Counted from the stretch's first letter, positions 8,504 to 41,864 are shown. The stretch is DNA of 64,000 nucleotides from Candidatus Kaiserbacteria bacterium RIFCSPHIGHO2_01_FULL_53_29 (GCA_001781125.1 MFKT01000021.1:5178-69177); one strand, 5' to 3'. Notes: generated by a model not told the origin, from the letters alone. Numbers and translations are program-made.

Positions 8504-9880
8504 ATGTATGATGATTGCATGAATATCCGGAGACGCCTGTCTCTGCTTTTTCTTCTTCCCGTGTGCGCGGCGCTCCTTTTCTTTGCTTTCGCTTCTGCTG
8601 ACGCGCGCGACGAGCGCGCGGACAGGGAAGGGAGAATACCCGGACAATACATCGTCGTGTTCAAAGACTCGGTGGAAGACGTTGAGGCGGCCGAAAACGA
8701 CATTGTGCAGCTCAGCCGCGGTGAGCGGCTGGATTCGTATCGCTCGGCGCTAAGCGGGTTCTCCGCGCGTTTCTCTGATGCCGACCTTGCGGCGGTCAAA
8801 AATGATCCGCGTGTGGAATTTGTAAGCGAAGACAGAGTAGTTTCGATAGATGTGCGGGCGGATTCGCGCTCACCGCAAGAGGATTCGAGGATCTCACTAC
8901 AGGCAGACCGCTTGAGCCGCGTAACGCCCACACCACTCGCCAAGGCGGGTCCCACCATTCAAGCGCAATCGCTGCCCACCGGCATCAATCGCATCAACGC
9001 AGAAGGGTTGGCAAATACCGGCGCAGGTGTCAATGTCGCGGTTATTGATACAGGAATTCTCTCATCCCATCCCGATCTTTCCGGCAAGGTCGTCGGCGGC
9101 AAGAACTGCACGAGGGCGAGCGGGGGATACACCGATCAAAATGGCCACGGCACACACGTGGCGGGCACTATCGCCGCGAGCAACAACAGCCTCGGGGTCG
9201 TGGGCGTCGCGCCTTCCGCCAAACTCTGGTCTGTGCGTGTGCTCGATAGGAATGGGAACGGCACATGGTCGTCCGTCATCTGCGGCCTCGATTATGTGAC
9301 GAGCAAGGCTCCCGCAAAGGGCGGGCCCATCACCGTTGCCAATTTGAGTTTGGGCGGCGGAGGCGCGTCAGACAATAATTGCGGCAATAGCAACAACGAC
9401 GCCTTGCACAAGGCCATCTGCCGCACGCGCGACGCAGGCGTCACGCTCGTCGTTGCGGCCGGCAATAGCGGCGCCAACACGAGCGGCGCTGTCCCCGCTG
9501 CGTACGATGATGCTGTCATCACCGTCTCGGCTCTCGCGGATTCAAATGGTACTGCGGGAGGAGGCGGTGCCGCGACGTCCTTCGGCGCTGACGACACGTT
9601 TGCATCGTTCAGCAATTACGGAACCGCCGTAGATATCGGCGCGCCGGGTGTGTGGATCAATTCGACGTGGCTTTCAAATACGTACAAAACCATCAGCGGC
9701 ACCAGCATGGCCTCGCCGCATGTCGCCGGCGCCGCGGCGCTCTATATTGCCAAGAACCCGGGCGCCTCATGGACAGCAGTGCGCGATGCTTTGATTGCCG
9801 CGGGCGAAGCTCTCGGGGCAGGGCACACTGATCCATCAAGCAAGCATCCCGAACCCGTCCTGCGCGCGGACACGCTCTAA
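8504..9880 (+). CDS. S8 subtilisin-like serine protease with I9 inhibitor propeptide
   Basis: Signal peptide. I9-like propeptide (YIVVFKDSVEDV...). Catalytic Asp (VAVIDTGI), His (HGTHVAGTIAA) and Ser (GTSMASPHVAGAAALY). Confidence 0.85.
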   Translation: MYDDCMNIRRRLSLLFLLPVCAALLFFAFASADARDERADREGRIPGQYIVVFKDSVEDVEAAENDIVQLSRGERLDSYRSALSGFSARFSDADLAAVKNDPRVEFVSEDRVVSIDVRADSRSPQEDSRISLQADRLSRVTPTPLAKAGPTIQAQSLPTGINRINAEGLANTGAGVNVAVIDTGILSSHPDLSGKVVGGKNCTRASGGYTDQNGHGTHVAGTIAASNNSLGVVGVAPSAKLWSVRVLDRNGNGTWSSVICGLDYVTSKAPAKGGPITVANLSLGGGGASDNNCGNSNNDALHKAICRTRDAGVTLVVAAGNSGANTSGAVPAAYDDAVITVSALADSNGTAGGGGAATSFGADDTFASFSNYGTAVDIGAPGVWINSTWLSNTYKTISGTSMASPHVAGAAALYIAKNPGASWTAVRDALIAAGEALGAGHTDPSSKHPEPVLRADTL

Positions 9881-9922
9881 ACAAAGCTTTTGAGTTTTCT
9901 CGGAACGTGAGAAAATACACGG

Positions 9923-10975
9923 GTGAGGAAACCCCGTAGTAATCGCATTAAACGCGCCCGGCCGGTGATGCAAAAGCGTGAGTTGCGGCTCCTCGAAGGA
10001 GCGGCGCTTGTTGTGGTTGTTGTCCTCATTGTCGCGCTTTTTTGTATTTCGGCGATCCAAATGTTCGTCATGCGATCCGGTCAGACGGCTGCGGTCATCT
10101 CCGTAGTTTTGGTGGATCTTGTGAATGGTGACCGCGCATCGCAGAGCCTCGGGACGCTCACGATAAATCCCATTCTCACCGCTGCCGCACAGGCAAAAGC
10201 CGACGACATGGCGGGGAAAGGCTACTTCGCGCACAATTCACCGGACGGCAAGGATTCGTGGTACTGGTTCAAGCAAGCGGGATACTCATTCGCGTACGCC
10301 GGAGAGAATCTCGCGGTTGATTTTTCAGATTCTTCGGATGTCGAGCGCGCGTGGATGGACTCTCCCTTGCACCGCGAGAATCTTCTTGACCCGCATTTCA
10401 CCGAGATCGGTATCGCGATAGCGCAGGGAACGTTTGAGGGACATCCGACGACATTCGTTGTCCAGATGTTTGGGGCACCCGCACAGGCAAGCGAGGTACC
10501 GGTAGTCGTTCAGGAAATCACGGCACCGCAAAACGCCACGGAACCCGCGATCGCGACGACCGAGCTCCCTTCGGCCAATGTGTTGGGCTCGAGTTCAGAT
10601 AAGCCTGCGATTGAGGATGTATCGCCGATACCGGAAACTTCTGCGCCGATCGCGGATGTACGCACACCTGCTTCGCAGGCGCCGATCGGTGCCATCGTGC
10701 GCTACGCACCGGCGTGGGGATACTACGCGACCTCACCGAAGACAATGCTGCGCTACGCGTATTATCTGCTCGGATTCCTCGTGCTCTTGGCACTTTTTGT
10801 TACGACAGGCCTTGAATTGAAGTGGCACCACCGCCGTGCCTTTGCCGTCGCCGCGTGCCTCCTCGTATTTATGTCAGGCCTTTTCGTGGTCGCCGACTAC
10901 GCCATTTTCTCCGAGCCCGTCCTCGCGGACGAGAGTGTACCAAGGACCGTCCTTGACACGTCGGGAAGCACATAG
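9923..10975 (+). CDS. membrane-anchored CAP/SCP (YkwD-like) domain protein
   Basis: N-terminal TM segment. CAP signature GYFAHNSPDG...GENLA...AWMDSPLHRENLLDPHFTEIGIA. C-terminal TM region. Confidence 0.6.
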   Translation: MRKPRSNRIKRARPVMQKRELRLLEGAALVVVVVLIVALFCISAIQMFVMRSGQTAAVISVVLVDLVNGDRASQSLGTLTINPILTAAAQAKADDMAGKGYFAHNSPDGKDSWYWFKQAGYSFAYAGENLAVDFSDSSDVERAWMDSPLHRENLLDPHFTEIGIAIAQGTFEGHPTTFVVQMFGAPAQASEVPVVVQEITAPQNATEPAIATTELPSANVLGSSSDKPAIEDVSPIPETSAPIADVRTPASQAPIGAIVRYAPAWGYYATSPKTMLRYAYYLLGFLVLLALFVTTGLELKWHHRRAFAVAACLLVFMSGLFVVADYAIFSEPVLADESVPRTVLDTSGST

Positions 10976-11325: not shown

Positions 11326-13602
11326 ATGTCCAATACTTTGAATAGAATTCGCACACGGTTCTCGATCTTGCTTGGAATGGCAATTCTTCTTGGAAGCTTC
11401 GTCTTTGCAGGAGCTTTTGTTCAAATAGCAGATGCCGAAGTGATATTTTGCGGGACAAGTGCTGGGGCGACATCTACGAGCGGGATCGGCAGGACAGGAA
11501 GATGTGCAGACGGTGCCCGCCTTATCGTGGGTACATCGCCAGGCGAGGGGCCGCAAGGTCCGCAGGGTGAGGCTGGTCCGATTGGTCCACAGGGTCCGCA
11601 GGGCGACACTGGTCCCGCGGGTAGTGATGGAGCGGACGGCGCGACAGGTCCCGAAGGCCCACAAGGTGATACTGGCGCTACAGGTCCGCAGGGTACGGCA
11701 GGCGCTGATGGTGAAGATGGTACTGATGGAGCGGACGGCGCCACAGGCCCGGCCGGTGCCGATGGGACAGATGGCATAGACGGAGCGCAAGGTCCGGAAG
11801 GCGACACGGGACCTCAAGGTCCACAAGGTGACGAGGGGCCACAAGGTGTCGATGGTCCGCAAGGTCTGACGGGCGCTGATGGCGCGACAGGTCCGGAGGG
11901 GCCGGCGGGTGAATCAGCAAATGTCGTCGTGACAGAGGAGGGAGAAGGCGCCAACTGTGAGGCAGGCGGACAGAAAGTCGAGACGAGTGTCGGCGACGAT
12001 TCGCCGCAGGTAAGTTACGTCTGTAACGGACTGGACGGCGACGATGGAACAGACGGGACGAACGGTACCAACGGGACCAATGGCTCCAACGCGCTCGTCG
12101 TCGTGACCGACGAGGCGGCTGGTGCGAACTGTGAATTTGGAGGGGAAAAAGTAGAGTCGGGCGTCGACGCGAACAACAATACTGTTTTGGACGAGCTTGA
12201 GGTTACTTCCACGAGCTACGTCTGCGACGGCGCACCGGGAGCAGAAGGCGCGCCGGGTACACCCGGTGATCCGGGCACACCTGGAGACCAAGGTCTCCCG
12301 GGTCCTCAAGGCGTTCAAGGTATCCAAGGTGAAGTTGGACCACAAGGTCCGCAGGGTGATGTTGGTCCGATGGGGCCGGCTGGCCCAACAGGTCCTCAAG
12401 GTCCAATCGGCTTGACTGGTGAGACAGGTCCCACAGGTCCTCAAGGCGCAGAGGGTCCGACGGGTCCCGCAGGTCCGGCCGGTCCAGCTGGCCCAGAAGG
12501 TCCTGCCGGCCCAACAGGTGCAACTGGTCCGGAAGGTCCAATCGGACCAGCGGGCCCCGCAGGAGCTGATGGAGAAGATGGTACCAACGGGCAAGACGGC
12601 GCGACGGGCCCAGCTGGTCCGACAGGTGCCGCTGGTGCTGATGGTGCTGTCGGTCCAGAAGGTCCAACTGGTCCAGAAGGTCCTACAGGTCCCACAGGCG
12701 CTGCTGGTGACGATGGTCTCGCTTGTTGGGACACAAATCAAAATGGCGTTGCTGATCCCGCAGAAGATTTGAACGGCGACGACGTCTTCGATGCACTCGA
12801 CTGTCAGGGTGCAATAGGTCCGCAAGGTGATACAGGGGCAACCGGGGCAACTGGTCCCACAGGTCCGACGGGTCCAACGGGAGCAACAGGTGACACAGGC
12901 CCAGCTGGTCCGACAGGTGCCGCTGGTGCTGATGGTGCCACCGGCCCGACAGGCGCTACGGGCGCAACGGGTCCGGAAGGTCCACAAGGCCCAATAGGTC
13001 TCACAGGACCTCAAGGTGAGACGGGTCCAGCCGGCGCACAAGGTGACCAAGGAATTCAGGGAGAAATTGGCCCGATGGGTCCGCAAGGTGCTCAGGGAGA
13101 GACAGGAGCAACAGGTGCGACCGGCGCTGATGGCGCAACTGGGGCGGCAGGTGCCACTGGCGCGCCAGGCCCACAAGGAGACACCGGTGCTACGGGAGCA
13201 ACCGGTGCGACTGGTGCACAAGGTCCGCAGGGTGACGTCGGTCCTCAGGGTCCGCAGGGTGATACAGGTCCTGCTGGAGCAACAGGAGCTACAGGTGCTA
13301 CGGGTGCGGCAGGTGCTGATGGAGCTGATGGCGTAAGTGGATGGGAGAGAATCGTTGGCACCGCCTCATCATTGGATGAGATCGCAACAAAAACTGTAGT
13401 CGCAAACTGCAGCGCGGGAAAAAAGGTTCTGGGCGGAGGTTACCGCATTGACGTCGGCGGAGGCAGTATCGCTGCGATTACCAGCATTGTCAGCTTCCCC
13501 GCAGATGACGACACATGGTCTGTAACTGCGAGCGAGGATGACGATGCTATCGTGGGTGACTGGTTGGTCCAAGCCTACGCACTCTGCGCAACAGTTCTCT
13601 AG
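11326..13602 (+). CDS. bacterial collagen-like triple-helix repeat protein with interspersed non-collagen modules and a C-terminal globular domain
   Basis: Signal-like N-terminus. Hundreds of GxY triplets ([25 protein letters not shown]...). Two inserted xVVVTxExxGANCExGGxKVE...SYVCxG modules. A Ca-binding-like [24 protein letters not shown] segment. AGGGAGG-like RBS 25 nt upstream. Confidence 0.8.
11530..13330. repeat. GGN-CCN coding repeats (collagen GxY) generating many spurious overlapping ORFs on both strands
   Basis: Periodic ggt/ggc-ccn-nnn repeats. ORF-track entries 11421..11807, 11914..13221, 12441..12734 and 12804..13004 are artefacts of this periodicity. Confidence 0.7.
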
Positions 13603-13627
13603 AACTAAAACATTATCAGTAAAAAAA

Positions 13628-13654
13628 GAGCCCCGCCGAAGGCGGGGCTCTTTT
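13628..13654. terminator. bidirectional rho-independent terminator
   Basis: GAGCCCCGCC-gaa-GGCGGGGCTC with A7 upstream and T4 downstream. Serves the collagen gene on + and the 13669..13980 gene on -. Confidence 0.7.
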
Positions 13655-13668
13655 GCATGAGGGCGGGA

Positions 13669-13980
13669 TTAGTTTTTCGGCTTTACAAGGAAGAAAGAAA
13701 TTACAAACAACGCAGCAACAACCATGTCGGCGACCCGCCACATATCAGCGGCAAGGTAGAGCGGAGCAACGGGGTTGAAGACGACTGCCACAAGTACGAA
13801 CAGCCACACGAGCCAGAGCTTGTTTTGCTTGTAGGCCTGCGCTGCAGTCATGAGAGCTGCGCCGACGACGACCCAGTTCATGAGTTGGAAATAGGCGAAA
13901 TAGGGGACGGGCGCCAGAGCACCGAGGGCCATGGCGATTGCCAAGACCTTGAGCCAGTTATTGCCAAGCCATGCCTTCAT
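13669..13980 (-). CDS. small integral membrane protein (hypothetical)
   Basis: 103 aa with three predicted TM helices. A terminator lies immediately downstream. Confidence 0.4.
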   Translation of the reverse strand: MKAWLGNNWLKVLAIAMALGALAPVPYFAYFQLMNWVVVGAALMTAAQAYKQNKLWLVWLFVLVAVVFNPVAPLYLAADMWRVADMVVAALFVISFFLVKPKN

Positions 13981-14032
13981 ACGCGGACACTCTACTCCAC
14001 CTCTTTGTGCTAGTCAAAGCCGCAGCCCCTTG

Positions 14033-14062
14033 ACCTTAGAAGCGTCGCCTCTAAGGTAGGCC
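14033..14062. repeat. REP-like palindrome (REP1, left flank of RAYT1)
   Basis: ACCTTAGAAGCGTCGCCTCTAAGGTAGGCC hairpin. Shares the core GCGTCGCCTCTAAGGTAGG with the right flank. Confidence 0.55.
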
Positions 14063-14066
14063 TTAA

Positions 14067-14759
14067 TTACTTAAGATTTTCGATCATTGGTGATACCTCT
14101 CCGTAATAAGCCCGTGCATCGGAAAGCATTTTCTGCACTGGCACTTGATATGACCGGATTAGATCAACTTGTTCCGGGTCAAGGATCGCGTGCTCGGGCC
14201 GTACCATGCCAGAGTAGTCGGGGAAGCTTGCGTATGGATATGCCCGTATTTTTCTCTCTAGTCTCTGCATGTTTTTAACGAAACCGGATTTCCATTTAGG
14301 TTCGAATAATTCGCACGGATTCATGTGGACATAATCGACCGCACGATGCATATACCGATCGTCCGAGATGTGTTTCGATCTAAACGGCTTGATGAATAAA
14401 TTTCCCACACGGTCGTGCAGATTGTTGAAATAGAGTGCATAGCCCGTTCCGATCTTATGCATAAATCGAGAAATGCCGTGCTCCACAATTTCTTTCATCA
14501 ACAGGTGGATGTGGTTCGGCATCAGACAAAATGCACCAATGGCTACTAACGGTGACTTTCTTGGAAGAGTAAATGTCTCAGCGTATGAAACATGCTCGAA
14601 CAATGGGCGTTGAAGCGATTTTGTGTCGTTTGCCAAATAGAGGAGTTGCATGAACCGGCGATAGTGCGCGTCCTCCTCAAAGGTTATTCTTTTGTCGATG
14701 CCGCGATTGAAACAATGGAAATATTCATCTATTGCAAATGGAGTACGTCTGTAACTCAT
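14067..14759 (-). CDS. IS200-like Y1 HUH transposase, REP-associated tyrosine transposase (RAYT) type
   Basis: HuH motif LMPNHIHLLMKE. Catalytic-Tyr region YALYFNNLHDRVGNLFIKPFRSKHI. Paralogue of 34051..34728. Flanked by REP1 palindromes. Start taken at the internal ATG (MSYRRTPFAIDEYFHCF), which aligns with the paralogue; the track start codon at 14792 is TTG. Confidence 0.7.
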   Translation of the reverse strand: MSYRRTPFAIDEYFHCFNRGIDKRITFEEDAHYRRFMQLLYLANDTKSLQRPLFEHVSYAETFTLPRKSPLVAIGAFCLMPNHIHLLMKEIVEHGISRFMHKIGTGYALYFNNLHDRVGNLFIKPFRSKHISDDRYMHRAVDYVHMNPCELFEPKWKSGFVKNMQRLERKIRAYPYASFPDYSGMVRPEHAILDPEQVDLIRSYQVPVQKMLSDARAYYGEVSPMIENLK

Positions 14760-14797
14760 GAACTTATTGTAGCAACAAAATATGCTCGACAATAAGG

Positions 14798-14841
14798 TTA
14801 CCTTAGAGGCCTACCTTAGAGGCGTCGCCTCTAAGGTAGGT
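14798..14841. repeat. REP-like palindromes (REP1, right flank of RAYT1; two tandem units)
   Basis: TTACCTTAGAGGCCTACCTTAGAGGCGTCGCCTCTAAGGTAGG contains the perfect palindrome TACCTTAGAGGCGTCGCCTCTAAGGTA. Confidence 0.6.
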
Positions 14842-14883
14842 TCATGGAGGCCTACCGGTGCGGGAGGAAGGTACAATGGTCGA

Positions 14884-16227
14884 GTGAAATTATCAGACAT
14901 CACCGGAGTACGCATCAAAAAAGTGGCGGTGGTTGCGCAGGTCGTTGCGTCCTCCGCCGTCGCTGTGGGTGCTGCGGCTGTGGTGGCAGCGACGCGCGTA
15001 GCTTCTCCGCATAATAGCCACTCCATCGTCGAGCATGAGCTCGAGAAAGGGACGGAACTTTCGGTCATACGGCTCGTCGATCTCCTTATCGAGCGTGCGC
15101 AAGCGGCGCACGCATCAGATATCCATCTCGATCCGCGCGCAGGCTCGGTGGTAGTCAGGCTCCGTATCGACGGGATCCTGCAGGATGCTCACACGCTTCC
15201 CTCGAGCATTCACCATGAGGTTATCTCGCGCATCAAGATCCTTTGCGGCTTGCGCACCGACGAGCACCAAGCGGCACAAGACGGCCGTTTCCGCATCACG
15301 CTTGAGAGCGCTCTCTCGGTCGACGTGCGTGTTTCCATCGTGCCTACGTACCACGGAGAAAATGCTGTCTTGCGGCTTCTCTCTGATCAAGCAGAGGAAT
15401 TCACGCTCGAAACACTAGGGCTTACGCCAGAGAATCGCGCGAAGATCCTTCGCGCGATCAATAAGCCGCACGGCATGATCCTCGCGACCGGCCCGACCGG
15501 AAGCGGAAAGACGACGACACTCTACACGCTCGTTAAAATGCTCAACGTCCCCGCTGTTTCCATCATTACTGTTGAAGACCCCATCGAGTATTCGATATCA
15601 GGTATCAATCAAATACAGATCAACCCGCGCACGGGTCTCACATTCGCCAATGGCCTTCGGAGCATTCTAAGACAAGACCCCAACATCATCATGGTGGGTG
15701 AGATCCGGGATACCGAAACCGCCGGTCTTGCCGTCAACACGGCGCTTACCGGTCACCTTGTGCTCTCGACACTCCACACCAACGATGCGCCGACGACTCT
15801 ACCGCGTCTTCTCGACATGAAGATCGAACCATACCTCATCGCCTCGACCGTGAATATTGCCATCGGCCAGCGACTTGTCCGGCGCATCTGCAAACAGTGT
15901 AAGGAAGAACGCCCGATGACAAGTGCAGAAGCGGGGAGTCTTTCTGAGATCATGTCTGCGGAGCTTATCGAACTACCGGGCGTCTTTTACGCAGGTTCGG
16001 GCTGTGAGGCATGCGCGGGCACAGGCTATCGCGGGCGCGCGGGCATTCACGAAGTCATGGAGATCGACAATGATATTCGTGAGGCGATACTTCACAAAAC
16101 ATCTGCCCGCGAGATCCGTGATGTCGCCATACGCCAAGGCATGACGCCTCTTGTAGTTGATGGATTCCACAAGGCAGCACAGGGCCTGACCACGATCGAA
16201 GAGGTCTTGCGCACGCGCTATGAATAA
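14884..16227 (+). CDS. pilB: type IV pilus assembly ATPase PilB (GspE family)
   Basis: Walker A GPTGSGKTT; GspE core VIRLVDLLIERAQAAHASDIHLDP; C-terminal tetracysteine motif CKQC...GCEACAGTGYRGR. The track ORF start 14782 reads through REP1-R. Start reset to GTG 14884, which has a GGAGG 16 nt upstream; start uncertain. Confidence 0.8.
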   Translation: MKLSDITGVRIKKVAVVAQVVASSAVAVGAAAVVAATRVASPHNSHSIVEHELEKGTELSVIRLVDLLIERAQAAHASDIHLDPRAGSVVVRLRIDGILQDAHTLPSSIHHEVISRIKILCGLRTDEHQAAQDGRFRITLESALSVDVRVSIVPTYHGENAVLRLLSDQAEEFTLETLGLTPENRAKILRAINKPHGMILATGPTGSGKTTTLYTLVKMLNVPAVSIITVEDPIEYSISGINQIQINPRTGLTFANGLRSILRQDPNIIMVGEIRDTETAGLAVNTALTGHLVLSTLHTNDAPTTLPRLLDMKIEPYLIASTVNIAIGQRLVRRICKQCKEERPMTSAEAGSLSEIMSAELIELPGVFYAGSGCEACAGTGYRGRAGIHEVMEIDNDIREAILHKTSAREIRDVAIRQGMTPLVVDGFHKAAQGLTTIEEVLRTRYE

Positions 16228-20389: not shown

Positions 20390-20436
20390 CCCATATCCCT
20401 CAATCCTTGACGGCCGTCTATAATGGGGGGATATGG
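20390..20436. promoter_or_regulatory. nested palindrome overlapping the regulator start codon (candidate operator)
   Basis: CCCATATCCC-tcaatcctt-GACGGCCGTC-tataat-GGGGGGATATGGG; the ATG 20433 is embedded in the right arm. Confidence 0.4.
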
Positions 20437-21011
20437 GAAAGCTTGAGAATGAAGCCCGGTATGAGCGCCGTAAGGGGTATCTTCAACAGGCACTTCTCGC
20501 TGCCGTTGCAATTCCGGGACTGCTGCTCGTAGCCACCGCAGCGCCCAATGTTTTACAGCTTATCGAAAGACTTCCCGGCAACAAATACAAATTCAACTAT
20601 CGAATGAAGTCGGTCGCTTCCCGCCTGGCGCAACGCAAGCTCGTACGCTTCGTCGAACGAAACGGCAGAAAATATATGGAGATCACGGAAGCGGGCAGAC
20701 AAGTGCTTGAAATGGAACAACAAAAACGAACATTCGAGAAGCGTTCGCGCAGGCGGTGGGATAAACGATGGCGCATGATCATCTTTGACATACCGGAGAA
20801 ATATCGAGCGACCAGGAGTCGACTGCGAGTCATGTTGAGATCACTCGGTTTCGTGCAGCTGCAAGGAAGCGTTTGGGTATATCCCCATGATTGTGAGGAA
20901 GTGATCGCGCTCTTGAAAAGTGAACTCCGCGTGGGAGCATCCGTGCTCTACACGATAGTAGAGAAAATCGAGAACGATGCTGCTCTCAAAGATCATTTTG
21001 GTCTTCGTTGA
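20433..21011 (+). CDS. PaaX-like transcriptional regulator (N-terminal wHTH, PaaX_C-like C-terminus)
   Basis: RLAQRKLVRFVERNGRKYMEITEAGRQVL wing-helix. C-terminal WDKRWRMIIFDIPEKYRATRSRLRVMLRSLGFVQLQGSVWVYP resembles the PaaX/Cas2-fold C domain. Confidence 0.45.
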   Translation: MGKLENEARYERRKGYLQQALLAAVAIPGLLLVATAAPNVLQLIERLPGNKYKFNYRMKSVASRLAQRKLVRFVERNGRKYMEITEAGRQVLEMEQQKRTFEKRSRRRWDKRWRMIIFDIPEKYRATRSRLRVMLRSLGFVQLQGSVWVYPHDCEEVIALLKSELRVGASVLYTIVEKIENDAALKDHFGLR

Positions 21012-21013
21012 GT

Positions 21014-21058
21014 ATCCCCTTATTATGAACGGCCGTCAAAAATCGGGGGATGTTTTTT
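21014..21058. promoter_or_regulatory. second copy of the nested palindrome, followed by a T-run (operator and/or terminator)
   Basis: ATCCCC-ttattatg-AACGGCCGTC-aaaaatc-GGGGGAT-gttttttt. Same ACGGCCGT core and ATCCCC/GGGGAT outer arms as 20390-20436. About 140 bp upstream of the major pilin gene. Confidence 0.4.
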
Positions 21059-23387: not shown

Positions 23388-24590
23388 GTGAAAACCCGCA
23401 TACTCATGTTCGGATGGGAATTTCCGCCCTACAACAGCGGCGGACTTGGTGTTGCATGCCTCGGGCTCACCAAAGCGCTCTCGGAGCTTGGCGTGGAGGT
23501 GATTTTTGTGATGCCCAAAAAATTGGACATCAAAACTCCGTGGGCGCGCATCGTCTTTGCAGACGATGCGCGTATCGATGTGCGCGCTGTTAATTCGATG
23601 CTCAAGCCGTACGTCACGAGCCGGTCATATACACGGGACGGGGGCATTTACGCGGATGATCTCTTGGGTGAAGTACGTCGGTATGCTGCGCTTGGCGGCG
23701 CGATTGCGCGCGAGGAACAGTTCGATGTCATCTATGCCCACGACTGGCTCTCATTTGGCGCGGGTATCGAGGCGAAGCGTGCTACGGGAAAGCCCCTTAT
23801 CGTGCATGTGCATGCGACCGAATTCGATCGCTGCGGCGGTCCATCGGGTATCAACAGAGAAGTCTATGAGATCGAGAAAGAGGGGATGGAACAGGCTGAT
23901 GTGGTAATCGCAGTTTCCGAACTCACCAAAAACATCATCGTTCGCGAGTACGGGATTCGTCCCGAAAAAGTGCGCGTCGTCTACAATGGTATTGACGAAG
24001 GGACGGCACCATCGAGCGGCGGCTCGCTGCCCCGTTTGCGTAGCTTGAAAGCATCCGGGTATCGGCTGGTACTCTTTCTTGGCCGTGTGACGCTTCAAAA
24101 AGGTCCGGATCATTTTCTTCGCGCGGCCAAACGCGTCCTCGATCGCAATCCGCACGTCCTCTTTATCCTTTCAGGAGCGGGTGACATGGACGATCAGGTG
24201 ATGCGCCTTGCAGCTGAGCTCGGCATCGGGGGCCACGTATTTTTCACCGGATTTTTGCACGGAGCGGATCGGCACGAAGTGTATAAGGCGGCGGATCTCT
24301 TCGTCATGCCCTCCGTTTCCGAACCTTTTGGCATCACAGCGCTCGAAGCGATGAAGCTCGGCACGCCAGTACTGATCTCGAAACAATCGGGTGTTGCCGA
24401 GGTCGTGAAGCACGCGCTCAAGGTCGACTTCTGGGATGTCGATGAAATGGCCAATAAGATACTATCGGTCGTCGGGTACCCAGGGCTTCGACAGGCGTTG
24501 GCAGAAAATGCCGCGCGGGAGGCAGAATATCTCACATGGGCGCAGGCTGCGCAGAAAGTGAATGGCATTGTCCACGAACTTGTACAATAG
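23388..24590 (+). CDS. GT4/GT5-type glycosyltransferase, glycogen/alpha-glucan synthase-like
   Basis: N-terminal FGWEFPPYNSGGLGVACLGLTKAL and C-terminal GT-B fold motifs (EPFGITALEAM). Context is an alpha-glucan gene cluster. Confidence 0.65.
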   Translation: MKTRILMFGWEFPPYNSGGLGVACLGLTKALSELGVEVIFVMPKKLDIKTPWARIVFADDARIDVRAVNSMLKPYVTSRSYTRDGGIYADDLLGEVRRYAALGGAIAREEQFDVIYAHDWLSFGAGIEAKRATGKPLIVHVHATEFDRCGGPSGINREVYEIEKEGMEQADVVIAVSELTKNIIVREYGIRPEKVRVVYNGIDEGTAPSSGGSLPRLRSLKASGYRLVLFLGRVTLQKGPDHFLRAAKRVLDRNPHVLFILSGAGDMDDQVMRLAAELGIGGHVFFTGFLHGADRHEVYKAADLFVMPSVSEPFGITALEAMKLGTPVLISKQSGVAEVVKHALKVDFWDVDEMANKILSVVGYPGLRQALAENAAREAEYLTWAQAAQKVNGIVHELVQ

Positions 24591-24701: not shown

Positions 24702-25895
24702 ATGAAAAGCGTTTGCTTCTATTTTCAGGTGCATCAACCGTATCGCGTGAAGCGGTATCGCATTTTCGACGTGGGGAATGACGCAGAATATTTCAATGAT
24801 CGGGGAGAGAGCAATCTGAATAACCGGAAGATCATCGAGAAGGTGGCTCGAAAATCTTATATTCCGACGACACAGCTCCTGCTCGAGCTTTTGCGGCGGC
24901 ACCCCGAGATGCGCATCAGCTTTTCGTTCTCCGGCGTTGCACTCGAGCAGCTTGAGCGGCATGCGCCGGAAGTCATAGAACTTTTCAAACAGATCATAGA
25001 CACGGGACGGGCGGAAGTCTTGGGAGAGACCTATTACCACACGCTCGCGTTTTTTTATTCACCCGCGGAATTCGAGAGTCAGGTGACGAAACATCGGGAC
25101 ATCATACGGCGTTTGTTCGGAGCGCGTCCACGCGTATTCCGCAATACCGAACTCTCATATCGCAATGATCTGGGGGAGTGGGCCGATCGTGCCGGTTATA
25201 CAGGAGTGATCGCAGAAGGATGGGATCCCATTTTGGGCTGGCGTAGTCCCAATTATGTCTACAAACCGAAAGGTGCCGCCAACGCAAGATTACTTCTCAA
25301 GAATTATCGCCTGTCCGACGACGTCGCATTTCGATTCTCTTCGCGCGATTGGTCCGAGTGGCCTTTGACCTCGGAAAAATTCGCAGCTTGGATCGGGAGC
25401 GCCGAGGGCGACACTGTGAATCTTTTTATGGATTACGAGACATTTGGCGAGCATCAATGGGAGGAGACCGGTATTTTCAACTTTTTGGAAAAGTTGCCGG
25501 AGGAGTTGGCAAAAAACCCGGGTCTGGATTTCAAAACGCCATCGGAGGTGATCGCTACCTATGAGCCACGCGACGAAGTCGACATGCCGCATATCGTCAC
25601 CTGGGCCGACACCGACCGCGACTTGACCGCATGGACGGGGAATCCTATGCAAAAAGCCGCGATCGAGAATATCTACGCGCTCGAAAATGACGTACATCTC
25701 GCGAATGATGCAAAACTGCTCGAAGATTGGCGAAAACTCCAGACTTCCGACCACTTCTACTATATGTGTACCAAGTGGTTCGCCGACGGCGATGTACACG
25801 CCTACTTCTCGCCCTACGAATCACCCTACGATGCCTACATTGCCTACATGAACGCACTCTCGGATCTGCGCCTGCGCGTTGGCAAGCGGCGCTAA
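24702..25895 (+). CDS. glycoside hydrolase family 57 (alpha-amylase / alpha-glucan-acting)
   Basis: GH57 N-terminal hallmark CFYFQVHQPYR and the DYETFGEH region. Confidence 0.75.
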   Translation: MKSVCFYFQVHQPYRVKRYRIFDVGNDAEYFNDRGESNLNNRKIIEKVARKSYIPTTQLLLELLRRHPEMRISFSFSGVALEQLERHAPEVIELFKQIIDTGRAEVLGETYYHTLAFFYSPAEFESQVTKHRDIIRRLFGARPRVFRNTELSYRNDLGEWADRAGYTGVIAEGWDPILGWRSPNYVYKPKGAANARLLLKNYRLSDDVAFRFSSRDWSEWPLTSEKFAAWIGSAEGDTVNLFMDYETFGEHQWEETGIFNFLEKLPEELAKNPGLDFKTPSEVIATYEPRDEVDMPHIVTWADTDRDLTAWTGNPMQKAAIENIYALENDVHLANDAKLLEDWRKLQTSDHFYYMCTKWFADGDVHAYFSPYESPYDAYIAYMNALSDLRLRVGKRR

Positions 25896-25898
25896 TCT

Positions 25899-27854
25899 AT
25901 GGCCCGCTCGATCGTCCTTTCCAACGGAGAACTCTGCGTCGCGCTCGACAGATTCGGTGAGGTCCGCGATTTCTACTATCCGCACGTCGGGCTCGAGGAT
26001 CATGTGCGCGGACATTATCTGCATCGAGTCGGCGTGTGGATCGACGGAGTGATGAGTTGGTTCGATGAGGACGCAGTGTGGCAGATCGAGATCGGATGCG
26101 AAGAGGAGGCGCTTGCTTCAAAGATCACGGCGCGTCACCCCACTCTTCAGGTCGAGCTGACGTTCAAAGACATCGTTTACAACGAGCGTTCGATCTTCTT
26201 GCGGCGCGTAAAAGTCTCAAATCTCAGCTCGAGCGTACGCGAGATAAAGCTCTACTTTAGCCAACAGTTCGAGATCTACAAAGCGCACGGTGGAGACACG
26301 GCGTATTACGATCCTGCATCGCATTCGGTCATTCACTACAAGGGTCGTCGGGTTTTTCAGATCAGAGCCGAGCTCGATGGCGAATTATTTTCTGATTATG
26401 CGATCGGCATTGCGAATTTTCATGGGTTACAAGGTTCATTCCGCGATGCCGACGATGGCGCGCTTTCTAAAAATCCGATAGAACACGGACCCGTCGATTC
26501 AATCGTCGGTCTCTATGGCACCTATACGGGGGGTCAATCGCGCGTGTGTCACTACTGGATCGTCGCTGCACAATCGATCGCGCTCGCGCAAGAATTGAAC
26601 GAGTATGTGACGCGAAAGACTCCCGAATATTTGATGCAGATGGCGAGCAACTATTGGGAGTCATGGATGAAGCGGATGGTACCGGATTTTGGTGACCTCA
26701 AGCCGGCGCACATTGCGCTCTACAAGCGCTCGCTCATGCACGCGCGCTCGCATGTCGATCTCGAAGGCGGCATTCTCGCCTCGTGCGATTCCGACATGCT
26801 GCAGTACGGCCTCGATACGTATTCGTATGTGTGGCCGCGCGATGCGGCATATGTGGCTCTCGCGTTTGACATGGCAGGTGAATCGGCTGTGGCGAAGCGA
26901 TTGTTTGAATTCTGCAGCAGCGTCGTGGGTCACGACGGATATCTGATGCACAAATATCTGCCCGATAAGTCGCTCGGGAGTTCGTGGCATCCTTGGATAA
27001 GCGACGGGAAGCTGCAGTTGCCCATCCAAGAAGACGAAACAGCCCTTATCGTATATTCAATGTATCAGCACTACCTTTTGACAGACGACCTCGAACTGGT
27101 CGGGCTCTTGTATGCGCCGGTCGTCGAGAAAGCTGCCAACTTTATGCTGCAGTATCGGGATAAAAACACGAGCCTGCCCGATACATCGTACGATCTATGG
27201 GAAGAGAAGCGCGGTATCTCGACGTTTACTTCCGCTGCGGTGTACGGTGCGCTTGTGGCCGCTGCCGAACTTTCGAAAATTCTGGGAAAAGCAGAAAACG
27301 AAAAGCGCTACCGCGAGGGGTCAGAAGTGATACGCACTGCGATCCTTGCACATCTGTGGGATGGGGGTCAGGGGATATTCGTGAAATTGCTGCGCTCTGA
27401 TGGGAGTTTTGATCCGACGCTCGACGCGTCGAGTGTGTACGGTATTTTCGCGTTCGGCATTCTGCCACCTGAAGATCCGCGGCTCGTGCAGGCATGGGAG
27501 AGGACCGTGCGCGCGCTTTCCTACGGCATTCCGGCCGGAGGACTCGCGCGTTACGAGGGCGATCAATACTATCGCACCGACAAAGAATCGGCTGGAAATC
27601 CCTGGATCATCACGACCTTGTGGTACGCGGAATATCTGATCGCGTGCGCCAAGAAGGTGCAGGACTTGGATCGCGTACGTGAGATTTTTTCGTGGGTCGT
27701 TTTGCATGCGCAGCCCTCTGGTGTCTTATCCGAGCAGCTCGATCCGAAAACGGGGCGGCAAATTTCCGCGACCCCACTTACCTGGAGCCACGCGGCATAT
27801 GTGACAGCGGTCTTGAAGTATCTGAAACGTTCGGTAGAACTCGGTAGCACATGA
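25899..27854 (+). CDS. glycoside hydrolase family 15 (archaeal/bacterial-type glucoamylase or glucodextranase-like)
   Basis: N-terminal beta-sandwich plus (alpha/alpha)6 barrel signatures (YVWPRDAAYVALAF, LWEEKRGISTFT, ITTLWYAEYL). Confidence 0.7.
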   Translation: MARSIVLSNGELCVALDRFGEVRDFYYPHVGLEDHVRGHYLHRVGVWIDGVMSWFDEDAVWQIEIGCEEEALASKITARHPTLQVELTFKDIVYNERSIFLRRVKVSNLSSSVREIKLYFSQQFEIYKAHGGDTAYYDPASHSVIHYKGRRVFQIRAELDGELFSDYAIGIANFHGLQGSFRDADDGALSKNPIEHGPVDSIVGLYGTYTGGQSRVCHYWIVAAQSIALAQELNEYVTRKTPEYLMQMASNYWESWMKRMVPDFGDLKPAHIALYKRSLMHARSHVDLEGGILASCDSDMLQYGLDTYSYVWPRDAAYVALAFDMAGESAVAKRLFEFCSSVVGHDGYLMHKYLPDKSLGSSWHPWISDGKLQLPIQEDETALIVYSMYQHYLLTDDLELVGLLYAPVVEKAANFMLQYRDKNTSLPDTSYDLWEEKRGISTFTSAAVYGALVAAAELSKILGKAENEKRYREGSEVIRTAILAHLWDGGQGIFVKLLRSDGSFDPTLDASSVYGIFAFGILPPEDPRLVQAWERTVRALSYGIPAGGLARYEGDQYYRTDKESAGNPWIITTLWYAEYLIACAKKVQDLDRVREIFSWVVLHAQPSGVLSEQLDPKTGRQISATPLTWSHAAYVTAVLKYLKRSVELGST

Positions 27855-33381: not shown

Positions 33382-34014
33382 ATGTCCATTCTTACCAAAA
33401 AGGAAATTCTCGCGCGGGTAAAGAAGGGGAACATTGTCTTTCATCCGGGTCTCGATAGATTCCAATTGCAGACGCATGCAGTAGACCTCCGACTTGGCTT
33501 TACATTCCTCATCCCGAAATCCTGGAAAATGACGCCGAAGGGCAGGCAAGCGCTTTCGATAGACCCTCTCCGTGATCATGGACCCGAATACTTCGATGTG
33601 ATAGAGCTCGAACAAGGCCAGTCCTTCGACCTTCTGCCGCAAGAGTATGTCCTCGTCTCCACATTCGAGACGATAAAAGTGCCCAACGACCTTATGGCTG
33701 TCTTGTATCCGCGTTCATCAGTCAATCGCAAAGGGCTTTCGGTAGACTTGACCGGTATCATTGATAGCGGCTACGAGGGCCCGCTCACACTTCCCATTCG
33801 CAACAACACACGCTCACAGACCATCCAGCTCCATCCGGGCGAGCGATTTTGCCAGCTTGTTTTCGAAGAACTCAAACACAAAGTAGAACCCAAGAAATCC
33901 CGCTGGCATCAAAAGGACGTGGTGGATAAGGGCAAAAAAGAAAAAGCGGCCGAAATGAAACTCGTCTTTAGCGGCGACCTCAAAAAATTAAAAACCGACT
34001 TCTCTGCTCACTAA
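33382..34014 (+). CDS. dcd: dCTP deaminase (dUTPase-fold)
   Basis: MSILTKKEILARVKKGNIVFHPGLD...VDLRLG dCTP deaminase N-terminus. Confidence 0.8.
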   Translation: MSILTKKEILARVKKGNIVFHPGLDRFQLQTHAVDLRLGFTFLIPKSWKMTPKGRQALSIDPLRDHGPEYFDVIELEQGQSFDLLPQEYVLVSTFETIKVPNDLMAVLYPRSSVNRKGLSVDLTGIIDSGYEGPLTLPIRNNTRSQTIQLHPGERFCQLVFEELKHKVEPKKSRWHQKDVVDKGKKEKAAEMKLVFSGDLKKLKTDFSAH

Positions 34015-34036
34015 CGATGAGATGACATCTCATCGT
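34014..34036. repeat. REP-like palindrome (REP2, left flank of RAYT2)
   Basis: Perfect palindrome ACGATGAGATG-A-CATCTCATCGT starting at the dcd stop codon. Confidence 0.55.
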
Positions 34037-34050
34037 GGTACACTTGGGAC

Positions 34051-34728
34051 ATGGCAAATCGGCCTCCTTTTGAGTTAGGCGAGTGGTATCACTGTTTCAG
34101 CCGCGGTGTCGAGAAAAGAAAGGTATTTGAGAACGAGCTAGACGCAAATCGTTTTCTCATGCTTCTGTACTTAGCGAATGGAACAAAGCCCATACAGATT
34201 TTTAATACATACAAACCGGAACTTTCAAAAGCACTCAAAACTGATCGGGGAACTCCGATTGTTGCGGTTAGTGCGTATTGTCTGATGCCCAATCATTTTC
34301 ATTTGCTATTAAAAGAAGTCGTTGAGGGCGGCATTTCATCGTTTATGAGGAAGTTAGGAATTGCATACACAATGTATTTTAACGAAAAGAATGAACGTGT
34401 AGGGAATCTGTTTGTAAAACCCTTCCGGTCGCGGCGGATTGGTACCGATCGTTATTTCCAACGCGTTCTTCAATACATTCACTGCAATCCAGCTGAATTA
34501 TACGAGCCAGCTTGGAAATCTGGATCAGTGCGAAATATTCGCACACTGGAGAAGAAACTTGTTGATTATCCCTACTCAAGCCTCCGAAATTATTCATTGC
34601 CAAAGAGCAATAACAGGATTCTTTCAAAAGATGGATTTGATGTTGCCGATCATCCTTCGGCCGCCAGAATGATTGAAGATGCTCGATCCTATTATGCGGA
34701 CATTGCAGAAGACAGATTCGAGCGCTAG
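34051..34728 (+). CDS. IS200-like Y1 HUH transposase, RAYT type (paralogue of 14067..14759)
   Basis: LMPNHFHLLLKE HuH motif; YTMYFNEKNERVGNLFVKPFRSRRI Tyr region. Flanked by REP2 palindromes. Confidence 0.7.
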   Translation: MANRPPFELGEWYHCFSRGVEKRKVFENELDANRFLMLLYLANGTKPIQIFNTYKPELSKALKTDRGTPIVAVSAYCLMPNHFHLLLKEVVEGGISSFMRKLGIAYTMYFNEKNERVGNLFVKPFRSRRIGTDRYFQRVLQYIHCNPAELYEPAWKSGSVRNIRTLEKKLVDYPYSSLRNYSLPKSNNRILSKDGFDVADHPSAARMIEDARSYYADIAEDRFER

Positions 34729-34729
34729 T

Positions 34730-34754
34730 CACGATGAGATAACATCTCATCGTG
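34730..34754. repeat. REP-like palindrome (REP2, right flank of RAYT2)
   Basis: CACGATGAGAT-AA-CATCTCATCGTG. Confidence 0.55.
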
Positions 34755-38892: not shown

Positions 38893-38897
38893 GAACC

Positions 38898-41864
38898 ATG
38901 GTAAATCGCATTGCAGTCTCATCAAAGATCGAAGATGCACGCGCCAGAAGCTATCTCCACACACTCAAAAATTTGTTTCCCAAAAGCGGCCTCACGGCCG
39001 CTTCTGTCGTTCAGGCCTACACGGTCGATGCTCAAGTATCAGCACCAGATCTTGAGGAAGCTGCGCAACGGCTCACCAACCCAATAACGGAGGTTTCCTC
39101 CGTAGAGAATATTCCGACACCACAGACATACGCGTATGCGATTGAGATAGGATACCTGCCGGGCGTCACCGACAATGTAGGGCGCACGGCGCGCGAGACG
39201 ATAGAAGACTGCCTCGGCAAGAAATTCAAAGACGACGAGCACGTGTATTCGTCCGTCTTTATTTTCCTTGAAGGAAAGATAGAGGCGCGCGAAGCTGGAA
39301 GCTTCGCGCGCGAACTCCATAATCCGCTCATCGAGCGGGCAACTGTTTTTGCAGCGGGAAAGAAGTTTCCCGTCATCGTCCCACAAGTCAGACTTGTGGG
39401 GAAAACCCATACCAGCGAGATCGATCTCGATGTCTCAGACGAAGAATTGCGGAAGATGAGCAAAGAAGGAATCGAAGGGAGAGGCCCGCTCGCGCTCCCG
39501 CTCGCTTCGATGAAAGTGATACGCGGCCATTTTAAGAAATTAGGTCGCAATCCCACCGACGTCGAGCTCGAATCACTTGCGCAGACGTGGTCCGAGCACT
39601 GCAAGCACACGATATTTGCCGATCCGCTCGACGAAATAAAAGAGGGGATTTACCGCCGCTACATCAAGGGCGCAACGGAGAGAATACGAAAAGCAAAAGG
39701 CAAGAAGGATTTCTGCGTCTCGGTGTTCAAGGATAATTCGGGCGCCATTGCATTTGATGACAAGTATCTCGTAACGCACAAAGTGGAGACGCACAATTCT
39801 CCTTCGGGTCTCGACCCATTCGGCGGTTCCGTCACCGCCATTGTCGGCGTCAACCGTGATTGCCTCGGATTCGGGCTTGGCGCGAAACCGATCGCCAACA
39901 CCTATGGTTTCTGCGTCGAGGACCCGAACGACGCAACGGAATTGTTTAGAGATAAAGGTAAGCAACAGCCTCTCCTCCCTGCGCGCCGCATTCTCGAGGG
40001 CGTCGTCAAGGGCATCAATGCGGGAGGCAATCAAAGCGGCATCCCCACACCTCTTGGATTCGTTGCCGTTGATCCGTCCTATCGCGGCAAGCCGCTCGTC
40101 TTCGGCGGCACCGTCGGCCTGATCCCGCGTAAAAGCCCTGCGGGCTCACGCGGCTCCGCCCGTAAACTATATGCAAAACGTGCGCGACCGGGCGACTACA
40201 TCGTGATGCTCGGCGGACGTGTCGGACTCGATGGCATCCACGGCGCCACGTTCTCGTCCGAATCGCTCTCTGCCGGTTCGCCCGCGACAGCGGTTCAGAT
40301 AGGCGATCCCATCACCCAGAAAAAACTTTCCGACATGCTCATACGCGAAGCACGCGACGCGGGGCTGTACAACTCCATCACCGATGACGGCGCAGGCGGG
40401 CTCTCCGGTTCAGTGGGCGAAATGGCACGTGAAAGTGGAGGAGCGCAAGTCGACCTCGAGAAAGTCCCGCTCAAATATCCAGGCCTTGCGCCTTGGCAAA
40501 TATGGCTCTCCGAATCTCAAGAGCGTATGACGCTTGCGGTGCCGAGGGGAAAATGGTCTGCATTCAAAAAGATATGCGATAGACACGATGTCGAAGCCAC
40601 ATGCATCGGAGAGTTTACGAAATCGAAGCGTTGTATCGTTCGGCACAACGGAAAGTCTGTTATGGACATTGCGCTCGACTTTCTGCACGAAGGCAGGCCT
40701 GTCGAGCAGCAAAAAAGTGTCAGGCCGAGAAACCATCAAGGCGACGCCTCGGTGGTTGGAAGGGGAAAGACCGATCTCGCGGAAGCGCTTCTGCGAATGC
40801 TTTCGGGACCAAACGTCGGTTCAATTTCGTTCATTTCACAACAATACGACCACGAAGTGCAGGGCACGTCCGTGACGAAGCCTTTGCAGGGAAGGGGGCG
40901 GGTCAATGCGGATGCAGCTGTTTTGCAGCCGTTATCGGATTCACAAAAGGGCATCGTACTCGCACATGGTTATGCGCCTCGGTATTCGCAGATTGATACG
41001 TATGCGATGGCAGCCGCTTCTATCGATACAGCGGTACGCAACGCCATCGCTGCCGGAGCTTCTCTCGAGTACCTCGCCATTCTCGACAATTTCTGCTGGT
41101 CCTCGAGCGAGAAACCGGAACGACTCTACGAGCTGAAACAATCCGCCAAAGCTTGCTACGACACTGCGGTCGCCTACGGCACGCCATTTATTTCCGGCAA
41201 GGACAGTATGTTCAACGATTTCCGCGGATATGATTCGAAGGGGAAAAATGTCCACATCGCGGCATTGCCGACACTGCTCGTCTCTGCGATAGGGGTTATT
41301 CCCGATGTATCGAAAGCGATGACACTCGACTTCAAGCGTGTGGGTGACCTCGTGTATCTTATCGGGGAAACGAATGATGAACTGGGCGCATCGGCATATT
41401 TCTCGATGCCTGAAGAAATTGGACGTCCGACGTCCAATTTTGGGGGGCAGGTCCCGTGTGTAGATACGAAGAAGAATTCAAAAGCCTACGGAGCAGTATC
41501 GAAGGCAATACAAAAAGGACTCGTGGCTTCTGCTATTGGCGTGGGGCGCGGCGGACTCGCCGTCGCACTCGCCAAATCTGCAGTTGCAGGGCAGCTCGGC
41601 GTTCAGGCCGACCTCACCAAACTCCGCGGCAGCGCTAAAAGTGCAGAAGCGATTCTTTTTTCTGAAAGCCAAGGGCGCATGCTTCTTTCTGTGCCGCGCA
41701 GCGCGCAAAAGGAATTTGAGAAAGTATGTCAAGGCGTCGCCTTGACACAGATAGGAGAGGTAATCCAACCCGCATCAGTATCTATCGAACTGCCGAAGGC
41801 AAAAGTCGAATTGCCACTTTCCGCGCTGACCGAAAGCTACAGGTCGTTCTTCAAGAATTGGTAA
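38898..41864 (+). CDS. purL: phosphoribosylformylglycinamidine synthase II (PurL) with N-terminal PurS-like extension
   Basis: PurL/AIRS-fold repeats; about 230 extra N-terminal residues (PurS-like). Immediately followed by purQ. Confidence 0.8.
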   Translation: MVNRIAVSSKIEDARARSYLHTLKNLFPKSGLTAASVVQAYTVDAQVSAPDLEEAAQRLTNPITEVSSVENIPTPQTYAYAIEIGYLPGVTDNVGRTARETIEDCLGKKFKDDEHVYSSVFIFLEGKIEAREAGSFARELHNPLIERATVFAAGKKFPVIVPQVRLVGKTHTSEIDLDVSDEELRKMSKEGIEGRGPLALPLASMKVIRGHFKKLGRNPTDVELESLAQTWSEHCKHTIFADPLDEIKEGIYRRYIKGATERIRKAKGKKDFCVSVFKDNSGAIAFDDKYLVTHKVETHNSPSGLDPFGGSVTAIVGVNRDCLGFGLGAKPIANTYGFCVEDPNDATELFRDKGKQQPLLPARRILEGVVKGINAGGNQSGIPTPLGFVAVDPSYRGKPLVFGGTVGLIPRKSPAGSRGSARKLYAKRARPGDYIVMLGGRVGLDGIHGATFSSESLSAGSPATAVQIGDPITQKKLSDMLIREARDAGLYNSITDDGAGGLSGSVGEMARESGGAQVDLEKVPLKYPGLAPWQIWLSESQERMTLAVPRGKWSAFKKICDRHDVEATCIGEFTKSKRCIVRHNGKSVMDIALDFLHEGRPVEQQKSVRPRNHQGDASVVGRGKTDLAEALLRMLSGPNVGSISFISQQYDHEVQGTSVTKPLQGRGRVNADAAVLQPLSDSQKGIVLAHGYAPRYSQIDTYAMAAASIDTAVRNAIAAGASLEYLAILDNFCWSSSEKPERLYELKQSAKACYDTAVAYGTPFISGKDSMFNDFRGYDSKGKNVHIAALPTLLVSAIGVIPDVSKAMTLDFKRVGDLVYLIGETNDELGASAYFSMPEEIGRPTSNFGGQVPCVDTKKNSKAYGAVSKAIQKGLVASAIGVGRGGLAVALAKSAVAGQLGVQADLTKLRGSAKSAEAILFSESQGRMLLSVPRSAQKEFEKVCQGVALTQIGEVIQPASVSIELPKAKVELPLSALTESYRSFFKNW

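Follow-up and report, generated by a model that had tools for sequence, protein, structure and literature searches.

A probable REPtron-like unit in Candidatus Kaiserbacteria: a RAYT-like gene flanked by cognate palindromes

What kind of element is a small transposase-like gene that lies between palindromes of its own, one cluster of which runs into the predicted start of the gene next door? We asked this of a 64,000-nucleotide stretch of Candidatus Kaiserbacteria bacterium RIFCSPHIGHO2_01_FULL_53_29 (GCA_001781125.1, MFKT01000021.1:5178-69177; hereafter the window), in which a gene for a Y1-type HUH protein (gene A, 14067..14759, minus strand) is bordered on both sides by a palindrome that we call REP1, after the repetitive extragenic palindromes (REPs) of other bacteria. 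An earlier note on this DNA had described an IS200-like gene for a Y1 or REP-associated tyrosine transposase (RAYT) within its own REPs, and had suspected that the REP was being misread as the N-terminus of pilB, the adjoining pilus ATPase gene. Most descriptions of REP/RAYT systems come from complete genomes of Proteobacteria, Cyanobacteria and Bacteroidetes. On the evidence set out below, we consider it likely that this Kaiserbacteria locus is REPtron-like, made up of a RAYT-like gene and the REP-type palindromes cognate to it on either flank.

Gene A and the palindromes that flank it

Open reading frame (ORF) calling gives gene A a product of 230 aa, a predicted tyrosine endonuclease. We place its start at ATG 14759 because alignments of homologues begin at MSYRR or MGYRR. 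The protein carries the HUH motif NHIHLL (H83, H85) and the catalytic-tyrosine motif YVHMNP (Y143), and in an alignment of 20 family members (NHxHLL, YxHxNP) residues H83, H85, Y143, H145 and N147 are invariant, with P148 kept in at least 90% of the sequences. The Pfam model PF01797 Y1_Tnp ("Transposase IS200 like") scores 26.0 bits for gene A and 31.3 for its paralogue gene B (see below) against a gathering cut-off of 23, which together with the two motifs bears out the identification of 14067-14759 (-) as an IS200-like Y1/RAYT gene. The top NCBIfam model for the protein is the equivalog NF047646 REP_Tyr_transpos. The family is large, with 840 clusters at 50% identity (E <= 1e-30).

Structural relatives were sought by fold comparison (Foldseek against the PDB) after a search of PDB sequences with the family profile had come up empty. 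The AlphaFold (AF2) model of the gene A protein has a pLDDT (predicted local distance difference test score) of 87.6, and its best PDB match is 4ER8 (E = 2.4e-5, TM-score 0.69 normalised to the target), the complex of an E. coli RAYT with a REP hairpin; the transposases of IS608, ISDra2 and IS200 rank behind it, and all matches with probability 1.00 are Y1 transposase or RAYT structures. The final ~80 residues are helical in the model. For this region (the C-terminal 78 aa) Pfam gave no match even at E <= 10, and the helix-turn-helix (HTH) domains Bac_DnaA_C, HTH_23 and HTH_28 were not detected. According to Quentin et al. (2018), Y---NP is the signature of RAYT-like class 2 and Y---Q that of class 1/IS200 (PMC6006769). 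Because gene A has Y---NP instead of Y---Q, its motifs, taken with the predicted fold, support assigning the protein to the Y1 HUH enzymes of RAYT-like class 2, and not to IS200 TnpA.

The earlier note had seen palindromes on both flanks, with one unit on the left and two tandem units on the right. The left side stands: an imperfect palindrome, TTGACCTTAGAAGCG-T-CGCCTCTAAGGTAGG (14030..14060), lies 6 nt past the gene A stop codon and is identical to the right unit at 27/31 positions. The right side is better described as about one and a half units plus a fragment. The full unit there, detected by repeat and palindrome scans and by folding, is a perfect 15+1+15 palindrome, CCTACCTTAGAGGCG-T-CGCCTCTAAGGTAGG (14810..14840), 50 nt upstream of the gene A start codon; abutting it, the sequence and the repeat scan show a duplicated 13-nt arm, GTTACCTTAGAGG (14797..14809), and a junction fragment, GGAGGCCTACC (14846..14856), repeats 14805-14815 (as read by eye). 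The full REP1 unit is 31 nt long, with a 21-nt core. The 19-mer GCGTCGCCTCTAAGGTAGG is found at 14042-14060 (+), 14822-14840 (+) and, with 1 mismatch, at 14810-14828 (-): three matches in the 64-kb window where 0.04 would be expected, all of them flanking gene A. As single-stranded DNA, the right unit is predicted to fold at about -17 kcal/mol (z = -5.2, on either strand) and the left unit at -7 to -11 kcal/mol. A promoter and terminator scan of 13600-15100 returned background-level hits, none at the palindromes, and no T-tract follows the hairpins.

Identity across ten strain variants of this locus (L001-L010) is 96-100%, and no empty-site polymorphism was found among them; a small discontinuity in one, L008, sits inside pilB, away from the REP. 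Exact matches to the gene A protein occur in a single genomic context across ~23 contigs (the NCBI assembly plus metagenome contigs).

The window contains a second such unit (34014-34754). Gene B (34051..34728, plus strand), between dcd and folA, encodes a 225-aa protein that is 46% identical to that of gene A. Palindrome scanning and folding place one palindrome, ACGATGAGATG-A-CATCTCATCGT (34014..34036), between the dcd stop and the gene B start, and another, CACGATGAGAT-AAC-ATCTCATCGTG (34730..34754), 1 nt past the gene B stop codon. The general form of this repeat, CACGATGAGAT(G/A)ACATCTCATCGTG, differs from REP1. The context of gene B, too, is constant in ~23 contigs, and its exact protein was found in one context only.

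The same pairing of gene and palindrome recurs in relatives. Seven of eight related genes (paralogue B and those of loci L023, L026, L034, L036, L040 and L042) have a palindrome of their own on both sides, and the eighth, in L038, has one upstream only; the palindromes of these homologues precede the start codon by 10-50 nt and follow the stop codon by 1-14 nt. P0002 (L023) is flanked by REP1 itself, P0073 (L026) by AACCGTAAGGCGWCGCCTTACGGTT, P0008 (L040) by TCCGTGGCGWCGCCACGGA, P0107 and P0108 (L034 and L036, in two species between which synteny is conserved) by CCGTAAGGTGWCACCTTACGG, and a 228-aa paralogue (L042) by ACGGCAAGGTAAGACCTTGCCGT; the upstream-only palindrome of P0012 (L038) is TCAAGAGGCGACGCCTCTTGA. 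Most of the flanking palindromes have the apex GG(C/T)G-W-C(G/A)CC in common, while the lower stem varies between lineages. A layout of one arm plus a full unit, as to the right of gene A, is also seen in L023 and L026, and these structures, with the conserved apex, hint at a cleavage site without defining one.

The comparison with P0002 is the most telling for the palindrome itself. At the protein level gene A and P0002 are 69% identical, with a proportion of synonymous differences (pS) of 0.83, meaning that synonymous sites are saturated, and a proportion of nonsynonymous differences (pN) of 0.19. The upstream copies of REP1 at the two genes are nonetheless identical at 30/31 positions and the downstream copies have two differences, whereas the spacers cannot be aligned and the similarity does not extend past the outer edges of the palindromes. 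By this measure REP1 is, at the level of sequence, under much stronger constraint than gene A. These pairings support the flanking palindromes being cognate to their Y1 genes and, with the Y---NP motif and the match to 4ER8, they uphold the REP plus RAYT organisation that the earlier note had proposed, with the qualification that the family is not canonical RAYT.

Two candidate regularities within the repeats were rejected. GTAG occurs inside the REP1 arms, where it might be taken for the canonical foot, and is missing from the REPs of other lineages. The centre base of the REP (A/T) does not set a fixed orientation relative to the gene: the window and L023 both show the direct orientation but are flipped relative to each other, and L026 shows the inverted one.

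Some of the related loci have peculiarities of their own. The P0008 REP is present four times at L040 9956-10770, with two copies upstream of the Y1 gene, one inside it and one downstream; one upstream copy is translated as a false N-terminal extension, SSVASPRI, and the copy inside the gene reads SVATPRI, with almost no change in length relative to homologues. In L038, a segment of ~75 nt from the start of alaS (its 5' end, ~9870-9950, upstream of the Y1 gene) is repeated at ~10730-10810 with ~70-75% identity by eye; this repeat, sited where the downstream palindrome was not found, may be the scar of an insertion or rearrangement. A reverse-transcriptase (RVT_1) gene adjoins the Y1 gene in L034/L035 (11186-12895) and is missing from the syntenic L036 of the sister species.

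Solo copies and palindromes read as protein

We scanned species-representative genomes, metagenome contigs and viral contigs for the REP1 hairpin; neither of the first two collections yielded the source genome itself. Among the species-representative genomes, one metagenome-assembled genome (MAG) of the Candidate Phyla Radiation (CPR), CAYMRY01, contains the REP1 core three times: one copy is intergenic, one lies inside uvrC and the third is nearby. In the metagenome Ga0209542 the core occurs at four sites, each on a different contig. The viral contigs gave no match to the REP1 hairpin.

Six of these seven solo cores lie inside long ORFs, where they read LRG[D/V]ASK or LEASPL. Host genes could be identified for five: uvrC, uvrB, transketolase, guaA (GMP synthase) and purH. 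The copies in UvrB and PurH fall in insertions of 17 aa and 14 aa, respectively, relative to solved homologues. Cognate solo copies are also found near their own Y1 genes, inside recR in L026 (where the protein is longer by ~3 aa than RecR in the PDB) and, in L038, within a gene for an M16 peptidase. A concentration of intragenic REPs in repair genes was reported by Di Nocera et al. (PMC3733652). Around the solo cores (L021, L022, L030-L033) the outer stems vary yet remain complementary (ATCAACC/GGTTGAT, ACCCC/GGGGT, AA/TT), which points either to sub-families of REPs or to palindromes that grow outward by hairpin-templated correction. As a separate observation, the UvrB of L030 has a second insertion, of 20 aa (SGTPRTVLGNYQGPSLVDYS, residues ~446-465 relative to solved UvrB), with no palindrome.

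REP1 is open in two of the three reading frames on either strand and encodes the peptide YLRG[VD]ASKVG, and gene callers consequently over-extend ORFs that adjoin such palindromes. The nearest example is pilB. The REP cluster occupies the 124-nt divergent spacer between gene A and pilB, and the pilB ORF called from ATG 14782, its sole in-frame ATG and no more than 22 nt away from the start of the divergent gene A, is 481 aa long and reads LEAYLRGVASKVG through the palindrome. The conserved ATPase core starts only near residue 86-97 of that ORF. Close PilB orthologues (72-80% identity, 443-451 aa) begin M-K-[LFI]-S-D-I, which aligns with VKLSDI at GTG 14884, a codon preceded by GGGAGGAAGG, and the NCBI record (L002) gives pilB 447 aa. 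These comparisons place the start at GTG 14884, so that pilB, a gene for a pilB/gspE-type pilus ATPase, spans 14884..16227 (plus strand, 447 aa) and the call from ATG 14782 is 34 codons too long. The suspicion that the longer ORF runs through the REP from a wrong start was therefore well placed. Palindromes are likewise translated in over-extended calls for a 569-aa gene in L023 and for the N-terminus of P0008. Di Nocera et al. noted that REPs at the 5' ends of ORFs give over-long gene calls (PMC3733652), and such calls probably recur across CPR MAGs.

Weighing the possible origins of the unit

We read the locus as a REPtron-like unit able to relocate occasionally, rather than as an active IS200, because identical proteins keep to single contexts, the paralogues are divergent, synteny is conserved, the tyrosine motif and the fold both fit, and palindromes without a gene exist. 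The unit resembles the REPtron of E. coli YafM (RAYT/TnpA-REP) in its Y1 HUH fold and Y---NP motif, in having a single-copy gene with a cognate hairpin repeat on both flanks and solo copies of the repeat elsewhere (here in other genomes), and in having divergent intragenomic paralogues, each with its own repeat family; a complex from that system, 4ER8, is also its best structural match. Low copy number and low intragenomic identity, as in class 2, are seen here in the form of two paralogues with 46% identity (in the 64 kb seen). Earlier work on REPtrons and RAYTs includes that of Nunvar (2010), Ton-Hoang (2012) and Bertels and Rainey (2011).

A mechanism can be proposed by analogy with E. coli TnpA-REP and the IS608 TnpA. 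In single-stranded DNA, such as that at replication forks, REP1 would extrude as a hairpin; a dimer of the Y1 protein would bind the hairpin; the HUH-bound metal and Tyr143 would cut and rejoin the strand; and copies of the REP, and occasionally the whole REP-gene-REP unit, would be placed at new sites. Since two of the three frames of REP1 are open on each strand, copies of suitable length could persist in frame inside genes. From the same analogy we infer hairpin recognition, cleavage and strand transfer by Tyr143, and present-day activity.

Several observations weigh against classifying the locus in this way. Gene A reaches 40.2 bits with the REP_Tyr_transpos model, whose cut-off is 80, and hence is not a canonical RAYT; the PDB sequences, searched with the 20-sequence family profile, gave no match at E <= 1. 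Where RAYTs have the W-Q residues tied to GTAG recognition by Quentin et al. (2018; PMC6006769), the 20-sequence alignment shows F-x-K, and the repeats have no conserved 5' GT[AG]G foot, GTAG being missing from the REPs of P0073, P0012, P0008, P0107/P0108, L042 and paralogue B. The count of further REP1 copies that the earlier note called for covered the 64-kb window, which holds none, nor any of the unit B repeat, at up to 3 mismatches; any dispersal of REP1 within this genome would be at best sparse, the solo copies having come from other genomes. The REP-Y1-REP unit also occupies different loci in two related genomes: in L023 (1231-3700) the REP1-Y1-REP1 unit, with the 569-aa gene (of no known family), lies between a GH57 gene and a neighbour that are 6 nt apart in the window genome (~25892-25899). 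Finally, both Y1 genes are low-GC outliers, at 0.45 (gene A) and 0.43 (gene B) relative to 0.54 for the window, with third-position GC (GC3) of 0.50 and 0.41 relative to ~0.6 in neighbouring genes, which fits a unit that itself moves. Other differences from the E. coli REPtron are that the Kaiserbacteria proteins, at 225-230 aa, carry an additional C-terminal domain, helical and unmatched in Pfam, that the repeats are perfect or near-perfect palindromes with an apex shared by most lineages, and that REPIN-like dimers and high copy number are not seen within the window.

Mobility of the whole ~810-bp unit is what would be expected of an autonomous insertion sequence (IS) of the IS200/IS605 type, with the palindromes as its left and right subterminal hairpins. 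Like the elements of that group (IS608, ISDra2; subclass 1.1), the unit combines the HUH/tyrosine single-strand transposase fold with a hairpin near either end of a compact structure, and the Pfam name, the low GC of the Y1 genes, the different loci in related genomes and the abrupt end of similarity between the window and P0002 units exactly at the outer palindrome edges would all suit it. We nevertheless think this explanation unlikely. IS200 elements of subclass 1.1 have Y---Q proteins of ~150 aa and are multi-copy, with copies ~99% identical within a genome (PMC6006769), whereas in the window we found no near-identical full-length copies, no Y---Q and no protein of that length: the locus has Y---NP, 230 aa and one copy per paralogue, and the two paralogues of the window, at 46% identity, have different palindromes. 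An identical protein that stays in one context across ~23 contigs, and the synteny around P0107 and P0108 in separate species, also speak against an active insertion sequence, as do a predicted structure nearer to the RAYT than to the TnpA of IS608 or ISDra2 and the existence of solo hairpins with no gene beside them.

The palindromes might instead be host regulatory elements (operators for a dimeric repressor, or hairpins acting in RNA stability or termination) unrelated to Y1 catalysis, with the Y1 protein a domesticated DNA-binding or hairpin-processing factor that has no role in spreading them. The upstream copy does lie in the divergent promoter region between gene A and pilB, a perfect palindrome would suit a dimeric binding protein, and the window's excess of perfect palindromes (17 where ~1.1 would be expected, many of them unrelated in sequence) shows that other origins are possible, for example template switching. 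An explanation of this kind seems to us less probable even than the insertion sequence: the hairpins lack a T-tract and are missed by the terminator scan, seven of eight relatives carry the same sequence on both sides of the gene, and an identical 21-nt core is found inside unrelated coding genes of other genomes, in lineage-specific insertions. That an ordinary gene happens to lie between two hairpins by chance, as the mere two to three motif copies in the window could suggest, is extremely improbable given three matches of the 19-mer where 0.04 would be expected, the recurrence of the arrangement in eight further loci (upstream only in L038) and a palindrome kept across saturated synonymous divergence.

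Within the REPtron-like reading, the nearest described group by length and motifs is TnpA-Y1 subclass 2.1, or TIRYT, with a median of 238 aa and the motifs NH[YF]H and Y[IV]HLNP; it is described as having a C-terminal HTH (Bac_DnaA_C, HTH_23 or HTH_28) and no REP-like hairpins (PMC6006769). The flanking repeats of some TIRtrons are fully self-complementary and make up repeat families of modest size (PMC3733652). The Kaiserbacteria units differ in that they carry hairpins, have no detected HTH and lack the GGGGWSAS terminal inverted repeat (TIR) motif, the subclass being compared here by its published description. A different likeness is to intragenic REPs and the Rickettsia palindromic elements (RPEs), which are also palindromic repeats carried in frame by housekeeping genes, notably DNA-repair genes (here uvrB, uvrC and recR). 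The elements described here are only 21-31 nt long, and each belongs with a specific Y1 gene; RPE-1 of Rickettsia reportedly exceeds 100 bp (Ogata 2000), and no transposase is known for the CGTC REPs.

Other features of the window and what the family offers

Three further palindromes in the window have the REP1 apex GGCGWCGCC on other arms. Palindrome and apex scans, with translation where a gene is involved, place one in an intergenic region (CACCGAGGCG-A-CGCCTCGGTG, 8357..8377) and two in purL (38895-41864): an imperfect one that reads HQGDASVVG in frame (40734..40760), and TGTCAAGGCG-T-CGCCTTGACA at the 3' end of the gene (41727..41747), which reads CQGVALT. Three of the four apex 9-mers in the window have at least 6 bp of extra perfect pairing, where 0.007 would be expected with at least 4 bp. 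These three palindromes may belong, as solo REPs, to a further Y1 paralogue encoded elsewhere in the genome.

Perfect palindromes are in fact abundant in the window generally: with arms of at least 9 and a loop of at most 5 there are 17, compared with ~1.1 in Markov shuffles. Examples are found at 15434-15458, 23545-23572, 34998-35026, 38118-38138, 39285-39311, 39380-39400, 41416-41440 and 62915-62937. Several of the 17 lie inside coding sequence (pilB, a glycosyltransferase gene, folA, an ATP-grasp gene, purL and the gene for mevalonate-diphosphate decarboxylase), and many show no sequence relationship to REP1. The one in pilB (RAKILRA) is kept in a relative whose PilB is 80% identical (L042 6565-6585).

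A bolder proposal, which we offer tentatively and would not yet back over its negation, is that the family constitutes an undescribed, CPR-wide RAYT-like subclass. Its short, perfectly palindromic REPs would be read mainly through the conserved apex GGCG-W-CGCC (and perhaps cut there, as by rolling-circle Rep proteins), with a lower stem specific to each lineage, and they would spread through reduced genomes chiefly by inserting in frame into essential genes for repair and nucleotide synthesis (uvrB, uvrC, recR, purL, purH and guaA); this activity would have left its trace in the excess of perfect palindromes in this genome.

Two other features of the window drew our attention. A 192-aa gene with a PaaX_M domain in the pilus cluster (20433-21011) is flanked by similar imperfect palindromes at 20390-20437 and 21014-21051, centred on ACGGCCGT (..CCTTGACGGCCGTC.. 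and ..ATGAACGGCCGTCAAAA..), which may be operator sites of the PaaX_M regulator. At 11326-13602 lies a gene for a 758-aa secreted protein made up largely of collagen-like G-x-x triplets, which long spurious ORFs overlap on both strands.

The locus in Kaiserbacteria is a divergent form of the REP/RAYT design known from other bacteria. The survey of Quentin et al. covered completely sequenced genomes, 2178 bacterial and 172 archaeal, and names no CPR lineage (PMC6006769); the literature that we searched yielded no paper on REP/RAYT in CPR/Patescibacteria. As a large family whose repeats are kept across saturated divergence, these units provide a clean natural experiment on the co-evolution of a protein with its DNA hairpin, and they open a route to the question of how selfish or domesticated palindromes are tolerated within the essential genes of very small genomes.

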